Shown: positions 2,622-21,271 of the stretch, piece after piece
Layout: each line of letters begins with the position of its first letter
How positions within the stretch are numbered: the first letter of the stretch is position 1
NCBI GenBank assembly: GCA_050633305.1
Contig: JBOEGF010000014.1
Location: 64,001-128,000 of the forward strand
Direction: 5' to 3'
Length of the DNA: 64,000 bases
From: Nannocystales bacterium
GTDB lineage: Bacteria > Myxococcota_A > Polyangia > Nannocystales > Nannocystaceae
Notes under the pieces: generated by a model
The model's database searches: none
What the model saw: the letters and a program-made list of their open reading frames with translations, nothing else
Told to the model about the DNA's origin: nothing
Program-made: the position numbers and the translations under genes

Positions 2622-4607
2622 ATGAAATTTAGCACGCTCCTCACCCGTCACCTGACCTGCTTCCTCCTGAGCTCCAGCGCGTTCGCGTGTTCGGCGGAGG
2701 GGGAACTCGACGCTCCCGAGGCGACTCCTCGAGCCGCGCCCACTGAAGCTGAGTCGCGGGCTGAGGTGTGCGACCTGTCTAACCAGGTCGTCGTTTTCAG
2801 CCAGGAGAGTAGTTGCGACGACGTTGGACCTTGGGAGGGGGAGCGGATCTTTGGCGGGTCCGGAGAGCCTCAGCCACCGGCAGGGTTGAGGGGCTACTGC
2901 CGCTACACGAAAGCGAGCAACACAACCCAGGGCCATGTCGACGCGCTTGCTGCCGGGCTGACTGCCGGGGACAACTCTCCAGCCTTTGAGATCGGCACGG
3001 ACTGCCGGGCTGTCGAGACTCAGAACTCCGCAATCGCGGATGAGGTTGGCACAGATCTGGAGGACTTCTTTGGCTGGCTGTCTGGCCGTTTCGACCCGCA
3101 GGACATCACCGTTCCCCCGCCGATCTCAGTCCACACTGCCATCGTCGACACCTATCCCAACGACTCACCGGACAAGCCCAAATCGAGTCATGGGCCCGTT
3201 GTCGCCAGCATCGTCGAATCATTTCTCTGTCCGACCGGCGTCGGTTGCACCCATCCGGTTCGCAACTACCTCGGGCTGCCTCGAACCAACGACGGTCTCA
3301 ATCTCGAGAAGGGAGGCCAGATTGGGCTTCAGTCCGATCTGGCGAAGGGCATCTACGCCGCACTGGTGGAAGACTCGCAGCTCGGCACCGACCGTCTGAT
3401 CATTAACCTGAGCGTCGCCTGGGAGGCAGAGCAGTTCGGCGGAATGGGGCTCGCCGACATGGACCCCGCTGCCCGCTCCGTCTTCGACATCATTCGTGTT
3501 GCTCGCTGTCGCGGCGCACTTATTATCGCAGCTGCGGGCAATGAAAGCAGTCTGTCATGCACCGGGGAGCCCATGGCCCCCGGGCGCTGGGAACAAATCC
3601 CCGCCCCGGACGAGGCGGAGTGCGTCCAGCTGGGCGTCCTAGACTGGGTCGAAGACACTGCTGCGTACACGCCGCTGGTCCATGCCGTCGGCGGACTGTT
3701 TGGCCCGGACACCGCGATGGCGACATCGCGGTCTGCCGGCATGCCACGGCTCGCCGCAGCCTCGAGCCACGCCGTCGCGCCGGCGCGCCTACCAGGCCTG
3801 CCCGGCGCGGCAATTCGGACCGGCACATCGGTTGGTACCGCTGTTGCGAGCGCGACCGCGGCCATGGTCTGGGGCTACGCTCCGGCCCTGACTCCTTCCG
3901 GGGTGATGGAGAGGCTCTACCTGTCCGGTCACCCCGTTGGGGACCTGACAGCCGACTTCGGCTCGGCCGGATCCACGCCCGTGCATCGCATCGATGCCTG
4001 CGCTGCCGTTGCCCTGTCCATTCCCGGCCCCGGCCCAACATGCGACTTCAGCACGCAGCCGGTCACCATTGGCCAGCTCGTTGGTGACCTGGAGGCGGTC
4101 GTGTCGATTTCGCACTCTCTCTCCGTCGACGATCCGCTCGAGTGCACGAACGTCTGCGGCGAGCAGTACTCGTTCCATCCTGTCCCCGGGTCTGCCAGAG
4201 ACTGCGCCGAAGTCGAACCTGACCCCTGGCGTTGGCTCACCACTCCGCAGCCTACCGAGGCAGGCTGCGACGAGTGCGTGCTGACAACGGAGACGTCGAC
4301 GGACCAGGCGACGGCATTGCTCACCGTCGGGGACCACTTCGATGCCGGCAATATCAAGTCGGTAGACCTCGAGATTATCGACGTCTTTGGGATGCCGCAC
4401 TTCTTCGGGATCACCGACAAGGAGCTTCAGCAAGCGGCTGTTGTGGAGCCGCGCTCCGGGTTCATTGATGAGTTCGTGGTGCCTATGAAGCTCGACGGAG
4501 TCTTGGCTGAGCGTGGCTTTGTCATCATGTCGTTCCTCGACCCAGCCGATCCCAACGGGGCGTCGATCGAGACCCGGGACCCGCTGATCCTGCGGACCTT
4601 GCCGTAG
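2622..4607 (+). CDS. S8 (subtilisin-like) serine peptidase, predicted lipoprotein
   Basis: Lipobox SAFAC; catalytic motifs AIVDT, SSHG, IINLS, IIAAAGN (oxyanion Asn), RTGTSVGTA; Cys-rich C-terminal extension. Confidence 0.85.
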   Translation: MKFSTLLTRHLTCFLLSSSAFACSAEGELDAPEATPRAAPTEAESRAEVCDLSNQVVVFSQESSCDDVGPWEGERIFGGSGEPQPPAGLRGYCRYTKASNTTQGHVDALAAGLTAGDNSPAFEIGTDCRAVETQNSAIADEVGTDLEDFFGWLSGRFDPQDITVPPPISVHTAIVDTYPNDSPDKPKSSHGPVVASIVESFLCPTGVGCTHPVRNYLGLPRTNDGLNLEKGGQIGLQSDLAKGIYAALVEDSQLGTDRLIINLSVAWEAEQFGGMGLADMDPAARSVFDIIRVARCRGALIIAAAGNESSLSCTGEPMAPGRWEQIPAPDEAECVQLGVLDWVEDTAAYTPLVHAVGGLFGPDTAMATSRSAGMPRLAAASSHAVAPARLPGLPGAAIRTGTSVGTAVASATAAMVWGYAPALTPSGVMERLYLSGHPVGDLTADFGSAGSTPVHRIDACAAVALSIPGPGPTCDFSTQPVTIGQLVGDLEAVVSISHSLSVDDPLECTNVCGEQYSFHPVPGSARDCAEVEPDPWRWLTTPQPTEAGCDECVLTTETSTDQATALLTVGDHFDAGNIKSVDLEIIDVFGMPHFFGITDKELQQAAVVEPRSGFIDEFVVPMKLDGVLAERGFVIMSFLDPADPNGASIETRDPLILRTLP

Positions 4608-4610
4608 CGG

Positions 4611-7184: not shown

Positions 7185-7879
7185 GAGGGGAGGATGATGA
7201 CCTCGATCGGCAGCCGCTGCCAGTGACTGTCTCGAACCTCGTCGGGCGATGACGGGGCTTCGGAAGCGTGGGAGAAGACGACCTCGACGGTCCACTGACC
7301 GGGGGGGAGATCGATGAAGCCGTCGAGTGGACCGCGGAGGCGGGCAGAGCCCGAAGCCTTCAGGTTCGCATCCACCGCTTTCGCGAACACAACCTGGCCG
7401 TCCTTGGAGGTTGCGAGCAGACTGACCGCGACGGACTGCTCCACCGAAGATGCTGCCGAGAACTTCCAGTCGATGTTGTCGTCGGGGCCACGCAACTCTA
7501 GCTGACTCGCCACGGCGTCGTGGTCTCCACGTATTGCCGCAGGACCCCCTGCAATCTCGATCGCGTTGTAGGTCGGCAATGCGTCGACGACGGGTGCGCG
7601 GACTGCGAACCAGAGCACAAGCGCGGCGGCAGCCGCCAAGGCCACGGCGGCTGCGACCCACACCGTCGAGCGGCGTTGCGGCAGCTCGGTGACGTTCGGC
7701 GGTTGTGCGGCGATCGACGGCGCCGCGGCAATTGCTGCCTTCGCATCCAGCTCGGCAAACATGTCGTCCAACAACGCGTCCCCGGCTTCACCGTCGAAGT
7801 CGTCGAGCGGGATCGGGGGGTCCTTCGCGTCCGTCTCTCGCTGATGTTGGGCGAGTGCTTCGAGGAGCTCGTCAGCCAT
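7181..7879 (-). CDS. Putative single-pass anti-sigma factor with periplasmic beta-rich domain
   Basis: Acidic N-terminus, TM VWVAAAVALAAAAALVLWFAV, about 140 aa beta-strand-rich C-terminus. ATG 7879 overlaps the sigma stop by 8 nt. Confidence 0.7.
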   Translation of the reverse strand: MADELLEALAQHQRETDAKDPPIPLDDFDGEAGDALLDDMFAELDAKAAIAAAPSIAAQPPNVTELPQRRSTVWVAAAVALAAAAALVLWFAVRAPVVDALPTYNAIEIAGGPAAIRGDHDAVASQLELRGPDDNIDWKFSAASSVEQSVAVSLLATSKDGQVVFAKAVDANLKASGSARLRGPLDGFIDLPPGQWTVEVVFSHASEAPSSPDEVRDSHWQRLPIEVIILPS

Positions 7880-8516
7880 GCGTTGCACCCCCACAGGCGG
7901 CGGTCTCAGCTGGCCTTGCATCCGCGCACAGGGCGGTGGCTCGGGCCAGTTTCCGCATCCTATACGACCAAGCATTGACCGCCCCCCGCGTCATGTCCAT
8001 GTGCTCGGCAACCGCATCGGGGGACATCTCCTGGACGAAAAGCAGGTCGAACAGCTCGTGGTCGCGCTCGTTCATCTTGGCGTGCATCGCAGCGAGGACC
8101 TGATCGAGTTGGTTGCGCTGCTCGAGCCGCTTGGCAAGGTCCGCGTCGTCGGCAGTGTCGATATCGGCCGGATCGAGGGGGGCATCGGCCCAAGGATTGC
8201 CGCGCCCACCGCTGAGCATTCGCGGAATGCGCCGCCGGGCGATGAGTTGCACGAAGCTCTCGAGGCTGCGGCCGCGCTGCGGGTCCCACCGGCGGAGCTG
8301 ATTGCCATCGTTCTCGAACAAGCCCAACAGGATATCGTGGACGAGGTCCTTGACCTCTTGCCGGGGGTCCCGGCCCTCGGCGGCGGCAAGCCGGGAGACC
8401 GCGAACGATGCTTCGCGAGCGACGGCCTGCATGAGTCGCCGCCCAAGCTCCCGACGCGCCGCGGCGTCCCCCGCCAGAGCGCGGGCTACGAGCTCGACAT
8501 CGTCCAGATCGGACAC
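7872..8516 (-). CDS. ECF RNA polymerase sigma factor
   Basis: DVELVARALAGDAAA, sigma2 EVKDLVHDILL..F..LRRWDP..GRSLESFV, sigma4 MSPDAVAEHMDMTRGAVNAWSYR. Confidence 0.9.
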   Translation of the reverse strand: MSDLDDVELVARALAGDAAARRELGRRLMQAVAREASFAVSRLAAAEGRDPRQEVKDLVHDILLGLFENDGNQLRRWDPQRGRSLESFVQLIARRRIPRMLSGGRGNPWADAPLDPADIDTADDADLAKRLEQRNQLDQVLAAMHAKMNERDHELFDLLFVQEMSPDAVAEHMDMTRGAVNAWSYRMRKLARATALCADARPAETAACGGATHG

Positions 8517-8698
8517 GCGCCGAGCGTAGCAGGATGTGTGGCCGGTGGTTGCCCAGGACCCTCATTCACGCCGAGCGGAACGCGAATGACGCAGCGTCTG
8601 ACAAATTGTCGAAACCGCACCCTCTGGGTCCGTGTCCCCGTCGCGAGGCCACCCCCACAGACAGATTTGGTCGGCGGTTGGCTCGGAAACCCGAGGCC

Positions 8699-9544
8699 TC
8701 ACCCGAACGGGATGGAGATCCCGAGCGCGGGACCAATACCCATCGTGCAGTTGCCGCGGACCGGCCCGCACGTGAACGTCTGGTTCCATTTTCTGGTGGG
8801 GACGCGCCCGTCGACCTCGACGCCAACGGTCAGCATGAATCGGCGACCCAACAACATGATGAGGCCACCACCGGCGGACCAACGGCCGTAGGTTCCCAAG
8901 CCTTTGTTGAAGGTATCCAGCCCGAAGCCACCCCAGAACAACGGAGAGAGGCGACGTCGCGGGAGCATGAGGAAGGTGGCCTGGGGCGTGAGCTGGAACT
9001 CGTAGTAGCTGCCCTGGGGATCCCACGAGAAGACGTTGACCAACTCCGCTCCCAACCCGATGTGGGGAATGACGAAGTAGGTCGCGGACGCTCCAATCGC
9101 GAACAGACTTCCGCCCGCGCCGATGACGGGCCCGGCCCAAAAACGCCCGTACAACGAGTCAGGCTTGCGTCTCCCCTCGGAGTCCCCCGGCGGCTGCAGT
9201 TCGGCGATCTCGGACTTGGGTTCAGTCGGCGTGAACTCAACCGCGGCGGGCTCGGGCTCGGGCTGACGCGGGGGAAGGACCGGGGCTGGACTCGCCTCGG
9301 TCGGCGACGGCTCGGCCGGGGCGGCCTCCGTTGGTGGCACCTCGCCCTCGGGCGAACCCTCGGGTGGACTCGCCTCGGCAGGCGGCGTCGCCTCAGCGGG
9401 TGGAGCGGCCTCGACAGGCGGGGTTGCCTCGGCGGGGGCGGGCGCGTCGGGGTCGTCCAGCTCCTCCCACTGCATGGCATCCGGATTGCTGGGGGCGGGT
9501 GGGGCGAGACCGACCCAGGCGGCAATGATGATCGCTGCAGACAT
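8699..9544 (-). CDS. Exported protein with Pro/Glu/Ala-rich linker and C-terminal outer-membrane beta-barrel-like domain
   Basis: Hydrophobic N-terminus, EATPP repeats, alternating beta-strand pattern ending GISIPFG; GGAG Shine-Dalgarno upstream. Confidence 0.6.
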   Translation of the reverse strand: MSAAIIIAAWVGLAPPAPSNPDAMQWEELDDPDAPAPAEATPPVEAAPPAEATPPAEASPPEGSPEGEVPPTEAAPAEPSPTEASPAPVLPPRQPEPEPAAVEFTPTEPKSEIAELQPPGDSEGRRKPDSLYGRFWAGPVIGAGGSLFAIGASATYFVIPHIGLGAELVNVFSWDPQGSYYEFQLTPQATFLMLPRRRLSPLFWGGFGLDTFNKGLGTYGRWSAGGGLIMLLGRRFMLTVGVEVDGRVPTRKWNQTFTCGPVRGNCTMGIGPALGISIPFG

Positions 9545-9637
9545 CTTCGAAGCTCCTGCTCGGCCCCTTCCTTGTAGCAGAACCGCACCAGCGCGACATC
9601 AGCGCGATGCGGCCCGGTGTGGGCTATCCTGGAAGAC

Positions 9638-11386
9638 GTGAGTCAGGCCGATGCCAAGATCGTGGAGCACGAAGAGGCGGCCCACGAGAAGCGCAACTGG
9701 GTTCGGCTGACGTACGACTGCAACGACCGCTGCATCTTCTGCCTCGACTCACACACGCACGATGGGACGAACCGCGACCGCGAAGAAGTTCGGGCGCAGA
9801 TCCTCGACGGGCGGCGCAAGGGCGCGCAGCGGCTGATCCTCTCGGGGGGAGAGCCGACGATCCACCCGGACTTCGTCAAGTTCGTGAAGCTCGGGGCCCT
9901 GGCCGGTTACCGCAAAGTGCAAACCGTCACGAACGGCCGGATGTTCGCGTACCCCGACTTCCTCAAGCGGAGCCTGGACGCTGGCCTCTCGGAGATCACG
10001 TTTTCGATCCACGGTCCCAACGCCCGGGTTCACGACGCGTTGGTCGGAACGAAGGGGGCATTCGAGCAAGAGGTCACGGGCCTGAAGCACGCGATGGCGG
10101 ATGGTCGGCCGATCATCAACATCGATGTCTGCGTGAACAAGGGCAACGTGAAGGTGCTGCCCGACATCCTGGAGACGTTCGTCGGCATGGGCGTCAAGGA
10201 GTACGACCTGCTCCACGTGATCCCGTTCGGACGCGCGTACACCGAGGGCAAGGAAACGCTCTTCTACGACCTTGAAGAGATGCGCCCGTTTCTCCTCGAG
10301 GCGTTCGAATATTCGAAGCGTCCGGACATCCACATCTGGCTCAACCGCTTTCCCGTTCCTCACCTCGAGGGCTACGAGTCGCTCATCCAGGACCCGTACA
10401 AGCTCGGTGATGAGGTGCGCGGTCGCAAGGAAGAGTATGCGCAGCTGCTCGAGCGAGGCATCCCGTTGGACTGCCGAGAGCCGGACCGGTGTCGCCACTG
10501 TTACCTCGAGCCGCTGTGCGACCGGCTCGATGAGGTTCGGGAAACGGTCGCGGAGCAGACCTACGCCCGGGTGCGTCTCGAGCCCGGGTTCGAGGCGTCG
10601 ATGCAGCCGGTCTACGGCGGAGACCCGGCGACCAAGAAGCGCACAGAGGAGCGCAGTCAGATCGCTCAGGAGGCGCAGGCGGGCAACGTTCAAGCTCGGC
10701 ATCGTCTTCAGGTGATCGGGGCGGGCAAGTCGGTGCAGTACCCCAGCGTGGCGCACCACGTTGCCGCGGCCAAGACGGTGTGGATCGTTGCACCGACGCT
10801 GGCGGACGCACAGCGGGCGCTGAAGGGGTTGGAGGTCGCGGCGGTGGAACTCGAACTTGCGGACCCCACCGGCATCGAGCCAACCCTCGATGGAGTTGCG
10901 GTGACCCGCGTGCTGGTCAAGACCACCGAGCACGCGCAAGCGCTGCTCGAGATGGAGGCGCCCTTCGAGGTTGCGATCACGTTGTCGAAGGCCACAGCAC
11001 CGTGGCTCCTGTCGCTGGATGCGGCGCCAGATCGCCTGTGCATCGTGCAACCCAGCCACGATCGGCTCACAACCGCGGCGTCCGAAGATGTTGAGCTGGA
11101 TGCCTTCTTCGAGGCGTTCGAGCTCCCCGTTCCGGTCGAGGGTGTTCCGGCCTGCATCAGCGCAGAGCGAGCCCGCGCGACACCATCCACCCTGGACGCA
11201 GCGATGATGACGCCGCAGGGCGAACTCGAGATCTTCCGTTTCGCAAGGCGGTACGTGCAGTCCGACTACCGGGTGAAATCGCTGCGCTGCAAGACATGCA
11301 AACACGTCGGGTCGTGCGAAGGGCTGCATGTCAACCACGTGCGGGCGTTCGGATTCGCAGCGTTGCAACCGGTGACCGACGGATGA
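9638..11386 (+). CDS. Radical SAM enzyme (HxsC-like) with two auxiliary Cys clusters
   Basis: CNDRCIFC, LSGGEPTIHP, TNGRMF, SIHG...HDALV; internal CREPDRCRHCYLEPLC and terminal CKTCKHVGSCEG. GTG 9638 follows a TATCCT box (ORF-track start 9617). Confidence 0.9.
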   Translation: MSQADAKIVEHEEAAHEKRNWVRLTYDCNDRCIFCLDSHTHDGTNRDREEVRAQILDGRRKGAQRLILSGGEPTIHPDFVKFVKLGALAGYRKVQTVTNGRMFAYPDFLKRSLDAGLSEITFSIHGPNARVHDALVGTKGAFEQEVTGLKHAMADGRPIINIDVCVNKGNVKVLPDILETFVGMGVKEYDLLHVIPFGRAYTEGKETLFYDLEEMRPFLLEAFEYSKRPDIHIWLNRFPVPHLEGYESLIQDPYKLGDEVRGRKEEYAQLLERGIPLDCREPDRCRHCYLEPLCDRLDEVRETVAEQTYARVRLEPGFEASMQPVYGGDPATKKRTEERSQIAQEAQAGNVQARHRLQVIGAGKSVQYPSVAHHVAAAKTVWIVAPTLADAQRALKGLEVAAVELELADPTGIEPTLDGVAVTRVLVKTTEHAQALLEMEAPFEVAITLSKATAPWLLSLDAAPDRLCIVQPSHDRLTTAASEDVELDAFFEAFELPVPVEGVPACISAERARATPSTLDAAMMTPQGELEIFRFARRYVQSDYRVKSLRCKTCKHVGSCEGLHVNHVRAFGFAALQPVTDG

Positions 11387-12480
11387 AGTGGCCCGATGCC
11401 GAAGGGCTGGTGCTGGATGACCTCACGGTCCCGAGGCCCGGCTCGAGCACGTTGCGTGGCGTATGGTCCAGAGCGCTCCGTCGAACGGTCCTCGATTTGC
11501 TTTCGCTCGAGGCCCCGCCGACCTGCCGCACGTGGGGCGTGAGCCGGGCCGCCGTCGCAGGGTTGGCAAAGTCGAACCCCGGGGCGTTGTTCAGCGTGTT
11601 GCGTCAGCCCGGTGTTGGAACGCGGATCCGGTGCCTCCGAGATCCGTCGCGCGATGACATCGATCGCGTTGCCGTCTGTGAATCCCTGCAGGCGGTGCTG
11701 GCACACGAGTTGGGAGCGTCGTGGACGGGCCCGGTCGTTCTCGATGCCACGTTTACCTCGTGGCGCGAGCGAGGCGAGGTCCGCGGCGGTCGGGTGATGA
11801 CCCAAGACGAGCACGGCCTACTGTTCGCGCCATTGGGTGCAGGCGTGATGTTGTGCCGGGCGGACGACAGCCCGCTCGCCATGCACGAGGCGCACCCGGA
11901 CAAGGATGGCAACCGCACCTCGCTCGGGGGGCAAGCGCAGTCACAATGGGTCGAGAGCCTGCGAGCCGCACTGGAGCTGATCGGAGTCGGACTCCCGGAC
12001 TTACACGCAGAGATCGAGCTCGCCCTGCATCAGATCGTCCCGGTCGGCTACGAGGAGTCCCGCCATCTCTCCGCATCGTTTCAGGAAAACCTCGGCACGG
12101 CGTACATGACGCTGCACCCGCAGCGGATGACGATGGTCGAGGCGATCGTGCACGAGTTCTCCCACAACAAGCTCAACGCCCTGCTCGAAATCGATCCGGT
12201 GCTTCACAACGCTTTCGAGCCGCTGTTCTCATCTCCAGTACGGCCGGATCCGCGGCCACTGCACGGCGTCCTTCTTGCGGTACACGCGTTCACGGCGGTG
12301 GAGTCGCTGTATCGCTCACTTCGCCGCCAGGGCCACCGTGTCAGCGAGGGACAAGGTTTTGAGCAACGCCTGAGAACGATCGCGGAAGGGAATCGCGAGG
12401 GGCTCGAAACGCTCGAAAACGCCGAGCCGACAGCGGCGGGGAAGTCGTTGTTGTCCGAGCTTCGCCGCCTCGCGGTGTAG
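11383..12480 (+). CDS. HEXXH-motif peptide-modification protein (aKG-HExxH family)
   Basis: HLSAS..ENLG, EAIVHEFSHNKLNAL, SPVRPDPRPLHGVLLAVHAF, TAAGKSLL. ATGA overlap with the radical SAM stop. Confidence 0.85.
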   Translation: MKWPDAEGLVLDDLTVPRPGSSTLRGVWSRALRRTVLDLLSLEAPPTCRTWGVSRAAVAGLAKSNPGALFSVLRQPGVGTRIRCLRDPSRDDIDRVAVCESLQAVLAHELGASWTGPVVLDATFTSWRERGEVRGGRVMTQDEHGLLFAPLGAGVMLCRADDSPLAMHEAHPDKDGNRTSLGGQAQSQWVESLRAALELIGVGLPDLHAEIELALHQIVPVGYEESRHLSASFQENLGTAYMTLHPQRMTMVEAIVHEFSHNKLNALLEIDPVLHNAFEPLFSSPVRPDPRPLHGVLLAVHAFTAVESLYRSLRRQGHRVSEGQGFEQRLRTIAEGNREGLETLENAEPTAAGKSLLSELRRLAV

Positions 12481-12591
12481 CGTCCGGCGCCACCGGATAC
12501 GCGCGGAGTCGCCCAAAACCGGCTGGCAGAGCACCTTGCGGCTGTATGCCGGTTCAGGCATCACAAGGGGCGGGGTATTGGGTTTGTTGTT

Positions 12592-12618
12592 CGCGGAGGT
12601 CTACGCCGCGGCTTTTTT
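12592..12618 (+). terminator. Weak candidate intrinsic terminator after the rSAM-HExxH pair
   Basis: CGCGG-N9-CCGCG followed by GC and T6; the stem is only 5 bp. Confidence 0.3.
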
Positions 12619-12666
12619 CGTCGTGTTCACGCGCCCTGCCATCCTGTGTGCTCGAGGGCACCAGCC

Positions 12667-14118
12667 ATGCTTACTGCTAGTACTTCCGTTCTCATCGCTC
12701 TTGCTCTGACCCAGGCGGCCCCGGAAGGGGATGCTGATGCCTCGGGCAGCATCTCCCTTGGAGGCGGTGATGGCTCGGCGTCGGCCGAAGGGGGCGCGGA
12801 GGGGACGGAGGACCCGAACAAGCGCAAGGACCAGCGCTGGATCAAGCGTTGGGCGCCCGAGCGCAACATGGTCGAGCTCGGGGTGTTTGGCGGGCTGATG
12901 TTCCCACACCCTCGACTCGAGCTCTTCGAGCCGATCGAAGGAGCCCCCGATCAGGGGTTCAAGCCGCTAGCATCACTCTCACCCGAAGTCGGTGGCAGAC
13001 TCGGATACTACCCGGCGCGGTTCCTCGGTCTGGAGGCAGAGGGCGCCTGGTTACCCACAGAGACGGACGCGGGCGACGCGGTCAACCTCTGGGCGGTTCG
13101 TGGACACTTGGTGGCTCAGGTCGCGCGATGGAGCATCACGCCGTTTGCGTTGGCCGGGGTCTCCGGGCTGGCAGTGGCCAGTGGGAGTGACGCGGTGGGC
13201 AACGACGTCGATCTTGGCTTCCATTTCGGAGGCGGTCTCAAGTTCTTCTTCACGCGCCGCTTCATGATGCGGCTCGACGTTCGCGACACGATGACCGCGC
13301 GGCGGGGGTTGGGGCTGGGCGTGGTGCACTCGCCCGAGGTGCTGCTCGGCATTGGCTTGGCGCTCAACCGCAAGAAATCCCCGCCGCCACCCGATCTCGA
13401 TCGCGACGATGACGGCATCCTCGATGCCGACGACAAGTGTATCGACGTACCAGGGGTCGTCGAGTACGAGGGGTGCCCGGTGCCGGATACTGACGGCGAT
13501 GGCATCATGGATCCGGACGACAAGTGCGTCGACGTGCCGGGCGTACCCGAGTACGAGGGATGCCCGATCCCGGATACGGATGGGGACGGCATCATGGATC
13601 CGGACGACAAGTGTGTCGACGTGCCGGGCGTGCCCGAATACGACGGCTGTCCCATCCCCGACACCGATGGGGACGGCATCCTGGACCCGGACGACAAGTG
13701 CGTGGACGAGCCGGAGACGGTCAACCAGTACGAGGACGAGGACGGCTGTCCCGATATTGTGCCGGAGAAGGTCCAGCAGTTCACCGGGGTCATCGAAGGC
13801 ATCTTCTTCGACACCGCGAAGGCCTCGATCAAGAAGCGCTCCACGGCCAAGCTCGACAACGCGATTTCGGTCCTCAAAGAGTTCCCGAAGCTCCGGATCG
13901 AGATCAGCGGACACACCGACGACCGTGGCAACGACGATTACAACACGAAGCTGTCCGCCGACCGGGCGGAGTCTGTGAAGGAGTACATGGTCGCAGCAGG
14001 TATCGACGGAAGTCGGATCGAAACGCGTGGCGCCGGCGAACTCGAGCCACGCGAGAGCAACAAGTCCAAGACCGGGCGAGCCAAGAACCGCCGGATCGAG
14101 TTCAAGCTGCTCAAGTAG
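12667..14118 (+). CDS. OmpA-family outer-membrane protein: beta-barrel + TSP3 repeats + OmpA C-terminal domain (TraB-like architecture)
   Basis: Signal peptide, beta-barrel strands, DxDGDGIxDxDDKC repeats, IFFDT...IEISGHTD..G...YN.KLS.DRA.SV...NRRIEF. Confidence 0.9.
   Translation: MLTASTSVLIALALTQAAPEGDADASGSISLGGGDGSASAEGGAEGTEDPNKRKDQRWIKRWAPERNMVELGVFGGLMFPHPRLELFEPIEGAPDQGFKPLASLSPEVGGRLGYYPARFLGLEAEGAWLPTETDAGDAVNLWAVRGHLVAQVARWSITPFALAGVSGLAVASGSDAVGNDVDLGFHFGGGLKFFFTRRFMMRLDVRDTMTARRGLGLGVVHSPEVLLGIGLALNRKKSPPPPDLDRDDDGILDADDKCIDVPGVVEYEGCPVPDTDGDGIMDPDDKCVDVPGVPEYEGCPIPDTDGDGIMDPDDKCVDVPGVPEYDGCPIPDTDGDGILDPDDKCVDEPETVNQYEDEDGCPDIVPEKVQQFTGVIEGIFFDTAKASIKKRSTAKLDNAISVLKEFPKLRIEISGHTDDRGNDDYNTKLSADRAESVKEYMVAAGIDGSRIETRGAGELEPRESNKSKTGRAKNRRIEFKLLK
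13399..13755 (+). repeat. Four tandem 87-nt (29-aa) TSP3-like Ca-binding repeats
   Basis: Unit DTDGDGIMDPDDKCVDVPGVPEYEGCPIP; the middle copies are near-identical in DNA. Confidence 0.9.
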
Positions 14119-14140
14119 GCACACGTAGGGGGGATTGACG

Positions 14141-16507
14141 ATGGATACGAAAACGATGCGCTGGCTTCTGTCGAGTGGACTTGTGGCGACCGGACTCACG
14201 GGGTGTGCGGACCCGTGTTCAGACGATGGGCTTCTCCAGGACGAGGTCTCGGAGTGCCCTGTGGACGTCGGTGGCGGAGGTGAATCCGACACCGAATCCG
14301 ACACCGACTCTGTGACGGACTCGGACTCGGACTCGGATTCGGATTCGGACTCGGACTCCGACTCGGATTCAGGCACGGACTCGGACACCGACTCGGAGAC
14401 GGAGAGCGGCACGGACTCGGACACCGAGGGTGGCGGCGACTGCATGGACGGGATGCAGAACGGCGACGAGACCGACGTGGACTGCGGCAATACCTGTGGC
14501 GCCACGTGCGAGGACGGCGAGGGCTGCGATGACGGAGACGATTGTGTCTCCGGTGTCTGCAACGAGGACACGCTGACCTGTGAGCAGGGGGAGCCGGTGT
14601 CCTACTGCGAGGATGCCGACGCCGACGGGTTTGGTGACCCGGACACCTGTGTCGACGTGCCTCCGGGCGAGGATCCTCCCGACGGCAGCGTGCCCAACGG
14701 GGACGATTGCGCCGACGACAACGGCAACGCATACCCCGGGGCGGCGGCGGAAGAGCCGGACCTGTGTGCCGAGGACGAGGACGGCGATGGCTACGGTGAT
14801 GCTGACCCTCCCGATGGCGTCGACCCCGGTTCTGACTGCGTCGACACCGAGGCGGACATCTATCCCGGTGCCGCCGAGCTGGAGCCGGAGTTGTGTACCG
14901 CTGATGTCGACGACGACGGCTATGGTGATGACAGCGCGACCGAGATCGACCCGGGCGCAGACGACGGCACCGACTGTGCCGATGACAACCCGAACGCATT
15001 CCCGGGGTCGGCCCCCAACGATAGCCCCACCGCGTGTCTCGAAGACGAGGATGGCGACGACTACGGCGACGCCGATCCCCCCGAGGGCGTTGAGGCGGGC
15101 ACGGACTGCAACGACATGGATGAGTCCGTGCCGTTCATCGTCGAGGGCATTCCCGACGACTGTCCCACCGCGGAACTCCTCGATGGGTCGCTAGGTTGCG
15201 AGTTCTACGCGATGCCACTGGCCAACGACGCTGGGGCTCCGCCGACCTACCAGCTGCTGCTGGCGAATGCGCATCCGTCCAACACGGCGTCGGTCACCAT
15301 CGAGACGCTCATCGGTGGTGTGTGGACTCCGCTGGTCGGACCCGTCGACATCCCGCCCGAGGCTCAGATCGTTGAGGATGTTCCGTACAACGCGTCGGGA
15401 TCGACGGCGATCTCCGTGGGCGGTGCGTATCGGGTCGTGTCCGATGTTCCGATCGCTGCGTACCAGGCATCGATCTCCCAATTCACCTCTGACGCCTCGC
15501 TTCTCATCCCGGTGGCGTCGTGGGACTCCGACTACGACGTCGTTGGATACGACGGTGTCAACGGGACCTTCGGAGAGTATGTCGCAGTCGTCGCGGGGGA
15601 GGATGCGACCGACGTGACGATCTCCCCGTCTCAGACGATCATCGGTGGCGGTGGAGTGCCGGCCATCCCAGCCGGGGGCTCCGATGTGATCACGCTCGAT
15701 GAGGGTGACGTTGTCGTCATGATGGCGACGGGCACGAACGGGACCTCGGACGCCTCTCTCACCGGGACGCTCATTTCCTCGAGCGCCCCCGTCGGGGTCT
15801 TCACGGGGAGCGAGTGCAGCAACGTCCCCGGTGGGAACAGCTTCTGCGACCACCTCGAGGAGATGCAGACGCCCACCAATACGGCTTCCAACACCGTTGT
15901 CGCCGCTCGTATGCCTCCACGCGGCGTGGTGGTCGAGGATGCGGTGTGGCAGATCTACGCCGTCGAAGACGCGGAGGTCAGCTTCGATGCGCTTCCGGGC
16001 GTGACGGGACTTCCTGGCGCTCCGGTCAGCATTGCAGCGGGAGAATCCCTGGAGTTGTCCGTCGGCGGGACGGTCGCCGAGCCCGGTGACTTCGTGGCGG
16101 AGTCCGACGCTCCGATCATCATCTCTCAGTTCCTCGCTGGCTCCACCACCGTCGGTACCGTGGCTCCCGGGATGGCCTCGGGCGACCCTGCCCACGTGAT
16201 CATGCCCGGCGCTTCCCAGTTGCTCGAGGCCTACGTCGTGAGCACCGTGAGCGGCAACGTCGCCAACCACCTCACGGTCACGCGCCAGACCGGGTCCGGC
16301 GACATCGACCTCAACGGGGTCGCGCTGGCGGCCGCAGACTTCGTCGCGATCTCGGGCGAATGGGAGGTCGCGCGGGTCGCGATCACCGAAGGCTCGCACG
16401 TACTGACGAGCGCGGATGCGTTTGCGGTTGTTGTGTCCGGCTACAACGAAGACAACAGCTACGCGTATCTCGGTGGTGGCCAGGCACGCGCGTTGGTCTG
16501 CGAATAG
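14141..16507 (+). CDS. Surface lipoprotein: Ser-Asp tract, Cys/Asp-rich (MopE-like) repeats, C-terminal IgGFc-binding-like domain
   Basis: Lipobox GLTGC; CMDGMQNGDETDVDCG; repeated DxDGDGYG..DCxD..YPGA; GCEFYA, SDVPIAAYQ, TSDASLLIP..W..DY, CDHLEEM, GDP, SYAYLGG. Confidence 0.8.
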   Translation: MDTKTMRWLLSSGLVATGLTGCADPCSDDGLLQDEVSECPVDVGGGGESDTESDTDSVTDSDSDSDSDSDSDSDSDSGTDSDTDSETESGTDSDTEGGGDCMDGMQNGDETDVDCGNTCGATCEDGEGCDDGDDCVSGVCNEDTLTCEQGEPVSYCEDADADGFGDPDTCVDVPPGEDPPDGSVPNGDDCADDNGNAYPGAAAEEPDLCAEDEDGDGYGDADPPDGVDPGSDCVDTEADIYPGAAELEPELCTADVDDDGYGDDSATEIDPGADDGTDCADDNPNAFPGSAPNDSPTACLEDEDGDDYGDADPPEGVEAGTDCNDMDESVPFIVEGIPDDCPTAELLDGSLGCEFYAMPLANDAGAPPTYQLLLANAHPSNTASVTIETLIGGVWTPLVGPVDIPPEAQIVEDVPYNASGSTAISVGGAYRVVSDVPIAAYQASISQFTSDASLLIPVASWDSDYDVVGYDGVNGTFGEYVAVVAGEDATDVTISPSQTIIGGGGVPAIPAGGSDVITLDEGDVVVMMATGTNGTSDASLTGTLISSSAPVGVFTGSECSNVPGGNSFCDHLEEMQTPTNTASNTVVAARMPPRGVVVEDAVWQIYAVEDAEVSFDALPGVTGLPGAPVSIAAGESLELSVGGTVAEPGDFVAESDAPIIISQFLAGSTTVGTVAPGMASGDPAHVIMPGASQLLEAYVVSTVSGNVANHLTVTRQTGSGDIDLNGVALAAADFVAISGEWEVARVAITEGSHVLTSADAFAVVVSGYNEDNSYAYLGGGQARALVCE
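14282..14430 (+). repeat. Hexamer (GACTCG-like) tract encoding Ser-Asp/Thr-Asp dipeptide repeats
   Basis: GACTCGGACTCGGACTCGGATTCGGATTCG... encodes ESDTESDTDSVTDSDSDSDSDSDSDSDSDSGTDSDTDS. Confidence 0.85.
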
Positions 16508-16673
16508 GGCTTGCGCTTCTCGCGCCGAAAAAAGGGGCGAACCAGGGTTAAACCGTTTGCGGCAAGCGAGGCTCTTAGGGGGGACCGCCATGAAAGCCTG
16601 CGCGTTTGCTTCCCACAGTCTTGTCACAACAACCCTTTCCGAGATGCCCGTGCGTCGTGGAGAAGGGGCGTAG

Positions 16674-18059
16674 ATGGGACCTGCCTACTCTATCGCCCTG
16701 CTGGGCGTGATTGTCGCGTTCGGAAACTCCGGCAACCTGGCCGCGCAACGCGATCCGCAGGCCATCCTCGGAGGTGCGCCGGTGGATGCATGCGCGTGGC
16801 CTTCGGCGGCTCGGGTCACGGTCGGCCCCGCCATCCAGGGGGCAGTGCTCATCCATCCGCGTGTCGCTCTGCTGACCAGTGCCCTTCAGAGATACGCCGG
16901 GCCTGGTGACTCATACCGGTTCATCTTCGGCCACTCCGGGACCGGGGACCTGGATGGCGTCGCCGACCTCCAGAACTGCCATTTCGACGGGGTCTTTGGT
17001 GTTTGCGTGCTCAACGAACCCGTTGATCTGCCGTTCGCACCGCCGCTGTTCGGGTGCGAAACGACGAACCTTGGGGTGGGTGCCGCAACCACGCTCGTCG
17101 GTTTTGGTGACGTCGGAAAACAGCCGAATGACGTTAGGCGAGCGGCTCTGGCGACGGTCGACGAGGTCCTCGATACAGGCATCTTCCTGCTGGACGGAGG
17201 GGTGGGCCCGTGTGCGGGCGACGCTGGTTCCCCTGCGTTCCTGCGACTCGAAGATGGCTCCTGGCGGACGGTAGGGATTGCGAGCACCACCGGGTGTAGC
17301 GGTGTTCCGTATCTCACCGTCAGCGACCGGGTGCCTTGGGTCGAGGAAGTGACCGGGATCGACGTGACACCATGTCACGACGCAGACGGGTTTCCCGACG
17401 CTGGGTCTGACTGTGCAGGGTTCTTCGCCGGAGATGCAGATAACATCGGAACTTGGGCCGACGTTTTCTGCGAAGACGGACCGAGGGGAGGGAGTGGAGG
17501 AGTCTGCAGTTCGGACGAACTGCCGCCGAGTGTGACCATCGATGCGCCTGGCGCTGGCACGAGCTACCCCGACGCGCCGTCCTCTGTTGTCGTCGAGGTG
17601 AGTGCCGACGATGCGGAGGGCTTGGGGGTCCGTGACGTCCGGCTGGTGATCAACGGCGAGGTGTTGGGGAGCGAGCGTTCCCAACCTCCGTACACCTTCG
17701 ATGTAGACCTGCCCGAAGGGATTTGGGTTCTCAGGGCCCTGGCTCGCGACTGGGGCGGCAACGAAGCCGAGTCCAGAGAGGTGGAGGTGCTGGTCGGAGA
17801 CGTGATGGTTCCGCCGACGCCAGGCACGGGCACAAGCACAGGCGCAGGACACCCGGGTGAAACCGAATCGGGTGAGTCCTCAGAAACGACGACCTCGGAC
17901 GGTTCCGGTGTTCCGCCCATTGACACCAGCGGTGGCACTGACGTCGACGGTGGGCAAGCCGAACCCGTCGGAGGAGGCTGTGGCGTGGGCGGTCGCAGTC
18001 ATCCCGGGTTGATGGCGGTGTTGCTGATGTGCGGGGTGCTTTTTACTCGGCGACGGTGA
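16674..18059 (+). CDS. Trypsin-fold (S1) protein with degenerate catalytic residues, Ig-like domain and MYXO-CTERM-like tail
   Basis: ILGGAPVDACAWPS N-terminus; LIHPRVALLTSALQ in place of TAAHC; CAGDAGSP in place of GDSGGP; PPSVTIDAP Ig domain; tail GGGCGVGG...LMAVLLMCGVLFTRRR. Confidence 0.8.
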   Translation: MGPAYSIALLGVIVAFGNSGNLAAQRDPQAILGGAPVDACAWPSAARVTVGPAIQGAVLIHPRVALLTSALQRYAGPGDSYRFIFGHSGTGDLDGVADLQNCHFDGVFGVCVLNEPVDLPFAPPLFGCETTNLGVGAATTLVGFGDVGKQPNDVRRAALATVDEVLDTGIFLLDGGVGPCAGDAGSPAFLRLEDGSWRTVGIASTTGCSGVPYLTVSDRVPWVEEVTGIDVTPCHDADGFPDAGSDCAGFFAGDADNIGTWADVFCEDGPRGGSGGVCSSDELPPSVTIDAPGAGTSYPDAPSSVVVEVSADDAEGLGVRDVRLVINGEVLGSERSQPPYTFDVDLPEGIWVLRALARDWGGNEAESREVEVLVGDVMVPPTPGTGTSTGAGHPGETESGESSETTTSDGSGVPPIDTSGGTDVDGGQAEPVGGGCGVGGRSHPGLMAVLLMCGVLFTRRR

Positions 18060-18106
18060 TTGGGCGTCGCGATGCCCTGCCGGGTCAGTACCAGCCTTGT
18101 CGTGGT

Positions 18107-19267
18107 CTACGCGTCCTCGCCCTGCTCGCGCTCCATCGCGATCCCGCTTGCCTCGGTCTTGCGAGCCTCAGCCTTGCGCTTCGCTACATACAGCCGTTCT
18201 CCGCGATCCGTCACCCGACCGACTGGGATGAGAGACGCGTCGCGTTGCGGCGGTGCAGTGTCCATTCCTCGCTCCGCCCGTGTGAACCGCTTCTTCCACT
18301 GTGGGAACGTCAGCGGCTTCTGACTCGGGTCCGTGCCATCGCCCAGAACGTGCTCGACCACGGGTTGGAGCGGAACGAACACGGGGTGGAGTTCGGCGGG
18401 GTCATACCCATCGCCGCGGTCGAACAACCCGCCGCAGATCGATCGCAGCGAACATGCATCGCAGGCCTCGGTGTAGATGTGTCCCCAGGCGGTCTGCCGT
18501 ACGGTCTGCTTGTCGTCCAGGAAGTGAACGATGCGTTCTTCTCCTTTGACGATCTTGCGGGTCTCGGTGCTGGCCCACGCGAAGTCGGTCATGTAGCACA
18601 GCGGAACCTTCTCCACGCGGAAGGTCCGGCCGCTGCGATGCAGGAGCTTCATCGCTCGGTGCAGCGAGAGCTCAAACTCGGCCAGCCGGGGGGTGAATGT
18701 GGCCTGGTTGACCTCGGCACGACCCATCGAGGGGTCGAGGTTGTTCCAGACGAAGTGCCGGATGTGCGGGTGCTGCTTCACCAACACGCGGATGTTCTCG
18801 TGTAGGTGGTCGGCGTTGAGCTTGTTGATGACGCAGTTGATGTTGACTTCGATTCCGAATCGAGCCGCGTTGTCAATGGCGGCGTAGGCTTTGGACAGGG
18901 TGTCTTCGGTGCCGCGGAGCCTGGCCTCGATCTCGGGTCGAACCGAGTAGACCGACACGTGGACCAGCCGAACGCCCGCCTCGGCCAGCGCCTGGGCGAA
19001 GTCGGGTTGTGAGAGCCGCGAGCCGTTGGTGATGAGCCGAACATGCAGTCCTTGCTCGCTTGCGTAGGCGGCGATCTTGGGGAGCTCGGGGTGCAGCGTT
19101 GGTTCGCCCCCGGTGAGGATGATGCCGAAGTATCCGCGCTCGACAAAGTCGTCGACGAGCACGCGCATGCTGTCGAAGTCGTGGGTGTACGGCGTCGTCG
19201 GGTTCGAGCAGAAGCCGCAGACGTGGTTGCAGTGCCGGACGACCTGCAGGTAGCCGATGTTGGCCAG
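18107..19267 (-). CDS. Radical SAM enzyme (HxsC-like), probable CTG start
   Basis: The frame upstream of ATG 19168 reads LANIGYLQVVRHCNHVCGFCSNP; then ILTGGEPTLHP, ITNGSRL, VEKVPLCYM, CDACSLRSICGG. There is an in-frame TAG at 19273-19271. Confidence 0.85.
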   Translation of the reverse strand: MANIGYLQVVRHCNHVCGFCSNPTTPYTHDFDSMRVLVDDFVERGYFGIILTGGEPTLHPELPKIAAYASEQGLHVRLITNGSRLSQPDFAQALAEAGVRLVHVSVYSVRPEIEARLRGTEDTLSKAYAAIDNAARFGIEVNINCVINKLNADHLHENIRVLVKQHPHIRHFVWNNLDPSMGRAEVNQATFTPRLAEFELSLHRAMKLLHRSGRTFRVEKVPLCYMTDFAWASTETRKIVKGEERIVHFLDDKQTVRQTAWGHIYTEACDACSLRSICGGLFDRGDGYDPAELHPVFVPLQPVVEHVLGDGTDPSQKPLTFPQWKKRFTRAERGMDTAPPQRDASLIPVGRVTDRGERLYVAKRKAEARKTEASGIAMEREQGEDA

Positions 19268-19378
19268 AGTCTACACAGTCTACCCGCCCTCTTGCGATCG
19301 GGGCACCACAGTCGCGCGCACCGACACGAATGTCGCGGTGTGGGGCGAGGTGGCGCGGCGGTTACACGGATGGAAGCT

Positions 19379-19394
19379 TGGCACGGCAGTTGTA
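19379..19394 (+). promoter_or_regulatory. Possible sigma-54 -24/-12 promoter
   Basis: TGGCACG-GCAG-TTGTA matches TGGCACG-N4-TTGC except for GC->GT; about 75 nt upstream of the next CDS. Confidence 0.4.
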
Positions 19395-19467
19395 TTCAAG
19401 GCCGTCGGCTTGACTGGATTGGCGGCGAAGCTCCTTGGGGGAGAGCGCTGCAGAATTGGCTTGGTGA

Positions 19468-20241
19468 ATGGGACAACTTCTAGGTCTGATGACGAGCCTG
19501 CTCGAACAACACGAGCAGGTTCCGGGTTGCTGGGGTGGTACGACGGCGGTGGCGGATGCTGCTCGCGCGCTGCGGGGCCGAGGTCATGCCTCGATCTGCC
19601 CTTCCATGACGTTCGCCTCGGGTGCGGACGACGTGGTGGGATCCTGGTTGGCTGAGGCTGCGCATGCGGAGAGTGGCTCTTGGATGGCGTTGCGGGCGGT
19701 TGGGCGAGAGCTCCGAGCCCACGACGCGCCGCGAGAGTTGGTGAGCACGGCCCGCGCTGTCTCGGCAGCCGCGCTCAACAATGCGGCGATGCTCGAGACG
19801 CTTGCGTTGCGGTGGGGTGTTCGGCCTCGACAGCCCAAGGTGGTGTCGATCGCGGTTCGGCCCTTGGAGTCCCTCGCGGTCGAGAACGCGATGGAGGGCT
19901 GTGTGCGCGAGACTTGGGCTGCACTGGAGGCGCGGTACCAATCATTGGCGGCCCGTGACCCCGTGATTCGCCGAACGATGGAGCGAGTCGCGTGCGATGG
20001 AGTCCGACATGCGGAGTTCTCGTGGGCAGTCGATGCTTGGGCGCGCCGCCGCCTGGAGCGCGAGGCCCGAAAGCGTGTCGAACGGTCTCGCCTGGATGCT
20101 GCGCAGGACCTTCTGGGTGCCCTGTGCATCGAGAGGCAACGGGATCTGTGCGTGGAAGCGGGCCTTCCGACCGTCGCGACCGCGCGGGGGTTGGCAGGGG
20201 CGCTTTGCGAAGCGCTCTGGTCACCGATCCTTGCGAACTGA
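19468..20241 (+). CDS. Myxobacterial ferritin-like domain protein (degenerate metal ligands)
   Basis: RELRAHDAPRELV, LAVENAMEGCVRETWAALEA..Q...A.DP.IR, RHAEFSWAVDAW, GLP. Confidence 0.7.
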   Translation: MGQLLGLMTSLLEQHEQVPGCWGGTTAVADAARALRGRGHASICPSMTFASGADDVVGSWLAEAAHAESGSWMALRAVGRELRAHDAPRELVSTARAVSAAALNNAAMLETLALRWGVRPRQPKVVSIAVRPLESLAVENAMEGCVRETWAALEARYQSLAARDPVIRRTMERVACDGVRHAEFSWAVDAWARRRLEREARKRVERSRLDAAQDLLGALCIERQRDLCVEAGLPTVATARGLAGALCEALWSPILAN

Positions 20242-20254
20242 GTTCACCGTCGGG

Positions 20255-21271
20255 ATGCTGTATCGTCCTCGTGACGTGAGCGGGACGAAGTGGACAAAGG
20301 GTGTTCTGTGGGCAGCGGTGCTGGTTGCGGCTGGATGCCCGGCGGACTCGGACGAGACAGGATCTGGCACGGATGGTGAGACGTCGACCGGCGATGTCGC
20401 GACGACGGGCACGGACCCTTCGGGCACCACCGCTGAGCCGGGCTCGACTTCGGGTGTCAACGAGAGCGAGACGTCCGACGGGGATAGCTCGAGTGGCGCT
20501 GCCGAGGAGACCGGCGACCCCTCGGGAGGCGATGTGTGCGGCGACATCCCGACGCGCATGATGTTCTTCGGGGACAGTCTGTTCGCCTGCTTTGGGCAAG
20601 ACGGAAAGATCGAGTCGGAGACGTGCAGTGCTCGTCTCTCGCACGAGTACCTGGCCGAGAACTACGCACCCGATGCGACCTACGAAAACCTGGCGGTCAG
20701 TGGAGCGGTCACCCGGGATGTGGTCAACATGCAGCTTCCCGGAGCGCCCGTAGGCATGCCCGGGCACACGCTGGTGGTCGTTTGGGTGGGAGGCAACGAC
20801 ATCTCGCCGCTTCTGTTGCAGTCGGATGCGGCGGCTGAGGATGCGTACCGCAACGAGCTTGTCCCCGAGTTTGAGATGCTCTGGGATGGGATCGAAGCTT
20901 GGGTCGACGACCCCGCGAACTTCCCCGACGGTGCGACGCTGATCATCAACACCCAGTTCAATCCTTTTGACGACTGCAGCGCTGACCCGTACGCGTTCAT
21001 GAGTCCGCTCAAGACGCAGCTGCTCGGCGAGTACAACGACACCCTCAGAGCGCGGGTCGACGCGCGACCCAACACCTACCTCTCCGACCAGTACCCCGTG
21101 TTCCTGGGCCATGGGCACCACTTCGGAACCGAGGGCTGTCCCAACTACGCGGACGGGTCCGCGTACTGGATGCTGGGCGGCGCAGACTTGGTGCACCCCA
21201 ACGGACTCGGCCACGTCTCGATCGCTGGTACGCTCAACGGGGCGCTCGACGAAGTGTTCGCCTGCGAGTGA
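20255..21271 (+). CDS. SGNH/GDSL hydrolase lipoprotein
   Basis: Lipobox VAAGC, S/T/G linker, FGDS, NLAVSGA, VGGND, DLVHPN. Start uncertain (ATG 20255 or GTG 20276). Confidence 0.85.
   Translation: MLYRPRDVSGTKWTKGVLWAAVLVAAGCPADSDETGSGTDGETSTGDVATTGTDPSGTTAEPGSTSGVNESETSDGDSSSGAAEETGDPSGGDVCGDIPTRMMFFGDSLFACFGQDGKIESETCSARLSHEYLAENYAPDATYENLAVSGAVTRDVVNMQLPGAPVGMPGHTLVVVWVGGNDISPLLLQSDAAAEDAYRNELVPEFEMLWDGIEAWVDDPANFPDGATLIINTQFNPFDDCSADPYAFMSPLKTQLLGEYNDTLRARVDARPNTYLSDQYPVFLGHGHHFGTEGCPNYADGSAYWMLGGADLVHPNGLGHVSIAGTLNGALDEVFACE

Follow-up and report, generated by a model that had tools for sequence, protein, structure and literature searches.

Two radical SAM genes and a gene of the aKG-HExxH family bracket three cell-surface genes in a stretch of Nannocystales DNA (the window, i.e. 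the whole 64,000 nucleotides analysed). What do these enzymes modify, and do the genes between them belong to the same system? The sequence-only reading had offered two answers: a split RiPP pathway with its precursor elsewhere in the genome, or modification of the Asp-rich surface neighbours. The analysis favours the former. All three enzymes probably belong to an expanded type-4 His-Xaa-Ser pathway, scattered over the genome, whose predicted substrates are His-Gly-Ser peptides encoded on contig C18. A probability of about 0.85 is given to the joint claim, chemistry excluded, that the enzymes serve HxsA4 and that the surface genes are passengers.

Layout of the locus

The HxsC-like radical SAM rSAM1, identified by profile search and motif, is encoded at 9638–11386 on the plus strand (GTG 9617 was the start given by the ORF finder). 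Its stop overlaps, via ATGA, the start of the aKG-HExxH peptide β-hydroxylase family gene (11383–12480, plus strand; TIGR04267, HEFSH at residues 257–261). Three further plus-strand genes follow: an OmpA β-barrel with Asp/Cys (TSP3-like) repeats and an OmpA C-terminal domain (12667–14118); its partner, an Asp/Cys-rich lipoprotein with an IgGFc-binding domain (14141–16507); and a trypsin-like protein with an Ig domain (16674–18059), which matched only Big_7 in Pfam and in which what we take to be the catalytic His and Ser positions of the trypsin motifs are replaced. The HxsC-like radical SAM rSAM2 (18107–19267, minus strand) is convergent with rSAM1–HExxH, with 5,627 bp between the end of the HExxH gene and its own. 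The overlap, the opposed HxsC-like gene 5.6 kb away and the nature of the three intervening genes had all been described beforehand and were confirmed.

An in-frame TAG sits just upstream of CTG 19267, so the start of rSAM2 must be this CTG; six aligned relatives have TTG (five) or GTG (one) at this codon. An Rfam search of positions 8000–21000 gave no matches at E ≤ 0.1, and a promoter/terminator scan did no better than shuffles (1 versus 1.1 and 5 versus 5.1).

Precursors and further genes of the system

The whole genome was scanned in six frames for His-x-Ser (HxS) repeats. No such frame was present in the window, and the four intergenic gaps of the locus (93–221 bp) held no precursor-like frame; the idea of a precursor hidden between the genes was dropped on this basis. 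The earlier statement that a precursor is absent holds for the window only: runs of at least three HxS triplets were confined to C18, where two HxsA4 precursors (NF038313; 99.6 and 64.4 bits, cut-off 55) lie at 686453–686776 and 686887–687189. They are 100–107 aa long and consist of a leader followed by HCS(HGS)n-W, with 15 and 11 HxS triplets and a terminal Trp. Neither has a signal peptide, and neither matched HxsA or a peptidoglycan-binding family in NCBIfam or Pfam.

An HxsD-like protein is encoded beside them (C18:686167–686406; NF038315, 70.5 bits, cut-off 41). HxsB (C14:59129–60610; TIGR03978, 570.6 bits, cut-off 370) lies 13 kb left of rSAM1; a second HxsD-like gene (C14:60607–61092) and a B12-type radical SAM fusion accompany it, so that the group spans 10–13 kb to the left of rSAM1 and falls beyond the window. 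HxsB scored 47.9 bits on AmcB (cut-off 425). More HxsC-like radical SAMs are encoded in the genome, about eight intact radical SAM genes being attributed to the HxsA4 system, and the system genes occupy at least three places in the genome, spread over C14 and C18. True HxsC4 (NF038332) exceeded its cut-off in eight of 40 genomes; it was not found in the seven genomes of the genus, including this one, the assembly of which is 92% complete.

The radical SAM enzymes and the HExxH protein

rSAM1 carries the CxxxCxxC motif (C28/C32/C35), an auxiliary Cys motif (C279/285/288/294) and a second α/β half that ends in a further Cys motif (C551/554/560). Its best NCBIfam matches were HxsC4 (113 bits, cut-off 500) and HxsC (TIGR03977; 90 bits, cut-off 267.9); that of rSAM2 was HxsC (101.7 bits). 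There is no named family for the HxsC-like paralogues of this genome, rSAM1 and rSAM2 among them. No cyclophane-forming family appeared among the 25 best matches shown for rSAM1 and rSAM2. A fold search with rSAM1 returned generic radical SAM barrels only (212–287 columns, TM ∼0.3 of the query) and no specific match for its C-terminal half; the closest solved folds include BlsE, viperin, MoaA, SkfB and PqqE, each at ∼20% identity. A predicted rSAM1–rSAM2 complex scored 0.00, which was counted neither for nor against. Several observations count against the assignment to the dispersed pathway: both proteins fail the HxsC and HxsC4 cut-offs, HxsC4 was not found in the genus, and the precursors of this genome lie on another contig and are devoid of the signal peptide and peptidoglycan-binding domain of E. 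coli HxsA.

The HExxH protein passes TIGR04267 with 95 bits (cut-off 40), and H257, E258 and H261 are invariant across seven orthologues. A Foldseek search with its model gave ChlH (8S5F; E = 5.8e-8) and SjiH (22OB; E = 1.7e-7) as the sole structure entries at E ≤ 0.001, with TM 0.50–0.61; the profile search matched 22NU and 8S5F. The ChlH His downstream of SPxRxDxRP, presumably its third metal ligand, aligns with Leu298, and an invariant His301 follows three residues on, one turn away; the metal site may therefore differ from that of ChlH. The protein is a predicted Fe/aKG-dependent hydroxylase and a likely accessory member of the HxsA4 system.

Co-occurrence and gene neighbourhoods

Since a loose DNA pattern of three HxS triplets matched all 40 relatives and also its control, it was uninformative and an HCS-HGS pattern was used instead. 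Among the 40 genomes rSAM1 was found in 22, rSAM2 in 21, HxsB in 20 and the HCS-HGS pattern in 19, all of the last within the 22 rSAM1 genomes and in none of the 18 others. Across 251 Myxococcota genomes, in which related genomes are not independent, HxsA4 was found in 87, rSAM1 in 90 and rSAM2 in 89; HxsA4 and rSAM1 occurred together in 84, HxsA4 alone in three, rSAM1 alone in six and neither in 158 (HxsA4 with rSAM2, 85; rSAM1 with rSAM2, 88). rSAM1, usually present in single copy, is a marker of HxsA4 systems. Presence varied within families, gene by gene alike, the carrier counts being identical with all four queries (f7, 5/18; f15, 3/17; f19, 1/4; f26, 4/5; f38, 1/2). This near-complete co-occurrence, with the two C18 precursors and the HxsB and HxsD-like genes just outside the window, supports the suggestion of a split RiPP pathway.

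All 52 genomes with the HExxH gene hold at least one of HxsA4, rSAM1 and rSAM2 (48 have HxsA4 and 51 rSAM1). The link of this enzyme to the system is weaker, because it was not found in 39 of the 87 HxsA4 genomes and precursors from genomes without it showed no obvious difference from those with it.

At least one of the three enzymes lies within 20 kb of HxsA4 in 27 genomes; for rSAM1 this holds in only 22 of 84, many assemblies being fragmented. In 49 of 88 genomes the gene next after rSAM1, in the same orientation, is rSAM2. Enzyme orthologues share a cluster with a precursor at L180, L188 and L189, which are compact, and at L112/L041. Cultured genera with such loci include Nannocystis, Enhygromyxa and Plesiocystis. 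The sequence-only reading had itself named orthologues that adjoin a conventional precursor, and never these surface genes, as evidence against surface-protein substrates. Its idea is refuted on that standard: orthologues do adjoin a precursor, and the OmpA gene comes after rSAM1 in five of 80 loci only, those of the closest relatives.

Alternative substrates and reactions

It is most improbable that the enzymes act on the OmpA/TSP3 protein or the lipoprotein by Asp β-hydroxylation, as had been speculated. The OmpA and lipoprotein genes do lie between the enzymes here and in all five other genomes of the genus with this stretch assembled, and aKG-HExxH enzymes can hydroxylate Asp (PMC12636437). 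However, the OmpA gene lies 3′ of rSAM1 in five of the 80 loci alone (57 of which had at least 4 kb of downstream sequence), and these five are 78–91% identical. In another genome (G018) rSAM1–HExxH converges on rSAM2 across a 10-bp gap without surface genes. The OmpA gene is one of eight such genes in the genome and the OmpA/lipoprotein pair is present four times, three of them away from these enzymes; five genomes of other genera gave 4–12 OmpA homologue matches each, none listed as adjoining rSAM1. The OmpA protein and the lipoprotein contain 0 and 1 HxS motifs, respectively, and an Asp content of at least 13% is shared by 51 of the 4,596 long proteins of the genome. Synteny and copy number, together with the clustering of orthologues with a precursor, largely refute the surface proteins as substrates. 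The surface genes are likely a later, unrelated insertion; of the loci examined, that of this genome is the only one with the trypsin-like gene at this position.

Improbable, though less so, is a role within the HxsA4 system in which the three enzymes have a target other than the peptide, either a small molecule (cofactor or building block) or the Tat-signal partner protein. Eight intact radical SAM genes exceed the apparent need of one near-uniform repeat, and small-molecule enzymes (BlsE, viperin and MoaA) are among the fold neighbours of rSAM1, as are SkfB and PqqE. Against this reading, E. coli cannot mature HxsA without HxsC, the closest named family (PMC13128918), and the HExxH family members described in PMC12636437 and PMC13060819 act on peptides. 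Somewhat less unlikely is that the HExxH protein cleaves the precursor, by leader removal or oxidative backbone cleavage, instead of hydroxylating His side chains. PflC/PosC cut the peptide chain at small residues, Ala or Gly for example, and PflC hydrolyses as well (PMC12636437). The precursor core is one-third Gly, maturation of E. coli HxsA includes cleavage, and among those genes of the 80 loci that carry a label (reference-set matches only) no family of dedicated proteases turns up repeatedly. Against cleavage, β-hydroxylation is the commonest reported activity, and absence from 39 of 87 HxsA4 genomes means that the enzyme is not the general processing enzyme.

Proposed pathway

In the dispersed type-4 pathway that we favour, HxsD-like proteins and the conserved leader would recruit the peptide for HxsB and for the HxsC-like radical SAMs, rSAM1 and rSAM2 among them. 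These enzymes would then modify the His-x-Ser triplets by oxidation, with His-to-Ser i/i+2 cross-links and/or a +C/−4H change as the likeliest outcome. HxsB, HxsC and HxsD mature HxsA in E. coli, with an unexplained +C/−4H, +8 Da change (PMC13128918), HaaB makes cross-links from His C2 to Cβ (PMC11002830) and ChlH hydroxylates His and Asp once the cyclophane has formed (PMC12636437); His–Ser cross-links and His hydroxylation are predicted here by analogy. The B12-type and methyltransferase fusions would be the probable carbon donors, and β-hydroxylation of His by the HExxH enzyme would be a later, optional modification. The destination of the mature peptide would be the cell envelope, reached by its own twin-arginine signal in distant lineages and probably by a partner protein here, and it may have an envelope role, perhaps anti-phage. 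A phage-entry barrier like HXS is our best guess, though less likely than not, and metal binding follows at slightly lower probability.

We suggest, with similar reserve, that about a third of Myxococcota use a radical SAM line of at least eight enzymes, its steps including B12-type, methyltransferase and aKG-HExxH ones, to make from ribosomal (His-Gly-Ser)n a repeatedly cross-linked, hydroxylated imidazole polymer that is placed in the envelope as a barrier to phage DNA or a metal trap. If so, few known routes of peptide maturation would employ as many enzymes, and this one would be working though scattered over the chromosome. Two unnamed radical SAM families and a stand-alone aKG-HExxH enzyme are now tied to a predicted (HGS)n substrate, and a short uniform substrate with many single-copy enzymes suits the assignment of reactions singly.

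Comparison with known systems

What the locus holds is likely just one piece of a type-4 His-Xaa-Ser system in expanded form, only some of which has been catalogued. From the NCBIfam type-4 set (NF038313, NF038315, NF038332, TIGR03978) two HxsA4, an HxsD-like protein and HxsB pass here; HxsC4 was not found, HxsC4/HxsC-like rSAM1 and rSAM2 being present instead, aKG-HExxH is added and the genes are spread out. A literature search found no study of this system, with subscription journals thinly covered; supplements of the HXS paper may list rarer arrangements.

The E. coli HXS anti-phage system (PMC13128918) has in common a His-x-Ser substrate and HxsB, HxsC-like and HxsD-like maturases. There they form a four-gene operon (HxsD-HxsB-HxsC-HxsA), whereas here the genes are scattered over two contigs, with about eight radical SAM genes, and the canonical cut-offs are not reached by rSAM1 or rSAM2 (HxsC) or by the C14 HxsD-like protein (TIGR03976; 31.4 bits, cut-off 50). 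E. coli HxsA is a periplasmic effector on the scale of 214 residues with a signal peptide, a domain that binds peptidoglycan, and five basic repeats; the peptides here have 100–107 aa, with 11–15 neutral HGS triplets and no such domain.

Triceptide systems (ChlBH, SjiH and HaaB) share the HExxH fold and family; the His-x-Ser triplet, with its aromatic-x-x spacing, would fit an i/i+2 cross-link. They differ in that the HExxH protein here is stand-alone rather than fused, with the downstream His, a presumed ligand, placed otherwise than in ChlH, and in that rSAM1 and rSAM2 are HxsC-like rather than members of cyclophane-forming families. The OmpA/TSP3 protein resembles TraB (NF033763) in its β-barrel, Asp/Cys repeats and OmpA domain and in the Cys-rich lipoprotein gene beside it; it reached only 146 bits where the cut-off is 700, and belongs to a multi-copy family outside the enzyme system.

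The window locus is very likely a fragment of an expanded type-4 His-Xaa-Ser system, a variant of the kind represented by HXS, the E. coli anti-phage system HxsD–HxsB–HxsC–HxsA.

Enzyme genes of the window

The three enzyme genes of the sequence-only reading were borne out in existence and position by ORF and profile checks. The HxsC-like radical SAM gene rSAM1 (9638–11386, + strand) encodes a CxxxCxxC motif and resembles both HxsC4 and HxsC, scoring below both cut-offs; its predicted model (pLDDT 83.5) comprises a radical SAM barrel and then a second α/β half with its own Cys motif. The αKG-HExxH gene (HExxH; 11383–12480, + strand) passes TIGR04267 and begins on the end of rSAM1, in the ATGA overlap claimed from the sequence. 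Its predicted model matched only ChlH and SjiH in a structure search, and one His position differs from ChlH. The second HxsC-like gene, rSAM2 (19267–18107, − strand), was assigned a CTG start (19265–19267) because an in-frame TAG lies just upstream; six aligned relatives carry TTG or GTG at this position. A hairpin, CGACA-TTCG-TGTCG, is located upstream of rSAM2 at about 19315–19330 and is kept in the genus with small changes.

HxsB block and precursors

The window spans C14:64001–128000 of the own genome (G000), and three minus-strand genes are located just left of its edge on contig C14, 10–13 kb from rSAM1. They encode HxsB (TIGR03978, passed with 570.6 versus 370 bits), an HxsD-like protein and a 766-residue rSAM–rSAM fusion, the first part of which weakly resembles B12-binding methyltransferases. 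Two small precursor ORFs on contig C18 have a common leader and both pass the model of the His-Gly-Ser repeat precursor HxsA4 (NF038313). Their cores contain 15 and 11 His-x-Ser triplets with Trp at the end, and runs of at least three HxS triplets were found only there when the whole genome was searched in all frames; an rSAM–methyltransferase fusion and two HxsD-like genes lie upstream. Further HxsC-like rSAMs lie at C14:48256 (of the rSAM genes the least certain member of the set), C18:604109 and C18:616180. In total, the genome's rSAM genes that resemble the His-Xaa-Ser set comprise eight that are intact and a single half gene.

Directly after HxsA4 lies a gene for a PAS-GGDEF-EAL protein (C18:687244–689520). 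The same order was seen in three further genomes among those examined, a hint of a connection with c-di-GMP. At one HxsA4 locus (L095, G023:C58) no stop codon separates HxsA4 from HxsC4, and this single reading frame is either a precursor–enzyme fusion or an assembly error.

Co-occurrence and linkage

A survey of 40 genomes, counting the own one, detected rSAM1 in 22, rSAM2 in 21, HxsB in 20 and HExxH in 17. An HCS–HGS DNA pattern was present in 19/40, all among the 22 with rSAM1 and none among the other 18; two of the three rSAM1 genomes lacking it have a precursor beginning HGS (L112, L113). Across 251 genomes of the phylum, with counts inflated by kin, HxsA4 occurred in 87, rSAM1 in 90, rSAM2 in 89 and HExxH in 52. 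HxsA4 and rSAM1 were found together in 84 genomes, HxsA4 alone in three, rSAM1 alone in six and neither in 158, some absences possibly being false because only 8–19 candidates were scored per genome. HxsA4 and rSAM2 were common to 85 genomes and the two rSAM genes to 88; all 52 HExxH genomes carried at least one of HxsA4, rSAM1 and rSAM2, and 48 carried HxsA4. Presence is also split within several families, with gene-by-gene agreement (f7, 5/18; f15, 3/17; f19, 1/4; f26, 4/5; f38, 1/2).

rSAM1 lies within 20 kb of HxsA4 in 22/84 genomes, rSAM2 in 20/85 and HExxH in 12/48, and in 49/88 genomes the two rSAM genes are tandem neighbours on the same strand, no more than 3 kb apart. In the best 80 rSAM1 loci, taken from 411 relatives, a B12-type fusion (by best BLAST label) was found at 59, HExxH at 19, rSAM2 at 12, and HxsB and HxsA4 at six each. 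At L180, L188 and L189 the precursor, HxsB, HxsD-like genes, rSAM1 and rSAM2 all lie within 22 kb, in L180 together with HExxH.

Precursor diversity and possible export

The repeats of all 36 distinct precursors collected end in Trp and number 9–27 triplets; 25 of the 36 have a short leader pattern resembling that of the own genome. Precursors of four distant families bear twin-arginine-like leaders, three of which pass the strict pattern. A 173-residue twin-arginine protein (C18:615581–616102) recurs in HxsA4 clusters, at 11 of the best 80 rSAM1 loci. It had no match in Pfam or NCBIfam, and one query did not find it in the four genomes whose precursors bear their own signal. On a small number of genomes, themselves incomplete, this hints that the protein may act as carrier for the peptide that lacks a signal. 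The half gene noted among the HxsC-like paralogues (C18:615081–615584; L111:15082–15585) survives, in the own genome and in 5/5 genus genomes searched, only as a C-terminal half of 165–173 residues without CxxxCxxC; in the four genomes with the twin-arginine gene intact it always follows that gene.

Relation to HXS and proposed chemistry

The system is predicted to work like HXS but departs from it in HxsC, HxsD, HxsA architecture and operon. Three of the four features of the NCBIfam type-4 set are present in the own genome; a profile search of the genus genomes did not find HxsC4. A literature search found no published account of HxsA4 or the expanded enzyme set.

According to the HXS report (PMC13128918), E. 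coli HxsB, HxsC and HxsD are each needed for HxsA cleavage, HxsA carries a +8 Da (+C/−4H) change on an SHRSS motif, and the mature protein acts from the periplasm to keep phage DNA from entering. Other papers describe rSAMs that join His C2 to the Cβ two residues further (PMC11002830), hydroxylation of His and Asp by ChlH on an already formed cyclophane and backbone cleavage by PflC/PosC (PMC12636437), and state that HExxH reactions cannot yet be predicted (PMC13060819). The enzyme set is established in gene content and linkage. The HGS triplets would be the target of rSAM1 and rSAM2, working together with HxsB and the remaining paralogues. The outcome would most likely be His–Ser links or the +C/−4H change, and HExxH would hydroxylate His as an optional step.

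Surface genes between the enzymes

Three genes lie between HExxH and rSAM2. The first encodes an OmpA/TSP3-like protein and the second an Asp/Cys-rich lipoprotein that contains an IgGFc-binding domain; the product of the third is trypsin-like but, judged by the trypsin motifs, lacks the catalytic residues. The OmpA and lipoprotein genes occupy this site also in five genomes of the same genus (G002–G006), and the trypsin-like gene in the own genome only. Among the best 80 rSAM1 loci, 57 of which have at least 4 kb of downstream sequence, OmpA follows rSAM1 at five, which are those of highest identity, and four have a close orthologue of the lipoprotein. In a genome of another genus (G018), rSAM1–HExxH and rSAM2 converge 10 bp apart, which is probably the arrangement before insertion. 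The own genome contains eight OmpA/TSP3 genes and six lipoproteins that share an N-terminal Cys motif, four of them paired with OmpA. The locus distribution, the G018 layout and these copies therefore identify the pair as an independent multi-copy module, resembling a TraB/TraA surface module. The pairs are located at 12667–16507 in the window and at C1:105635–108650, C2:149873–153109 and C18:2–2551; their lipoproteins have a Cys-x-Asp-Pro-Cys motif in common and range from 379 (partial) to 788 residues. A further inserted cassette at 2622–8516, comprising a subtilase, a CHAT-domain protein, a probable anti-sigma factor and an ECF sigma factor, separates the HxsB block from rSAM1; only some members of the genus have it.
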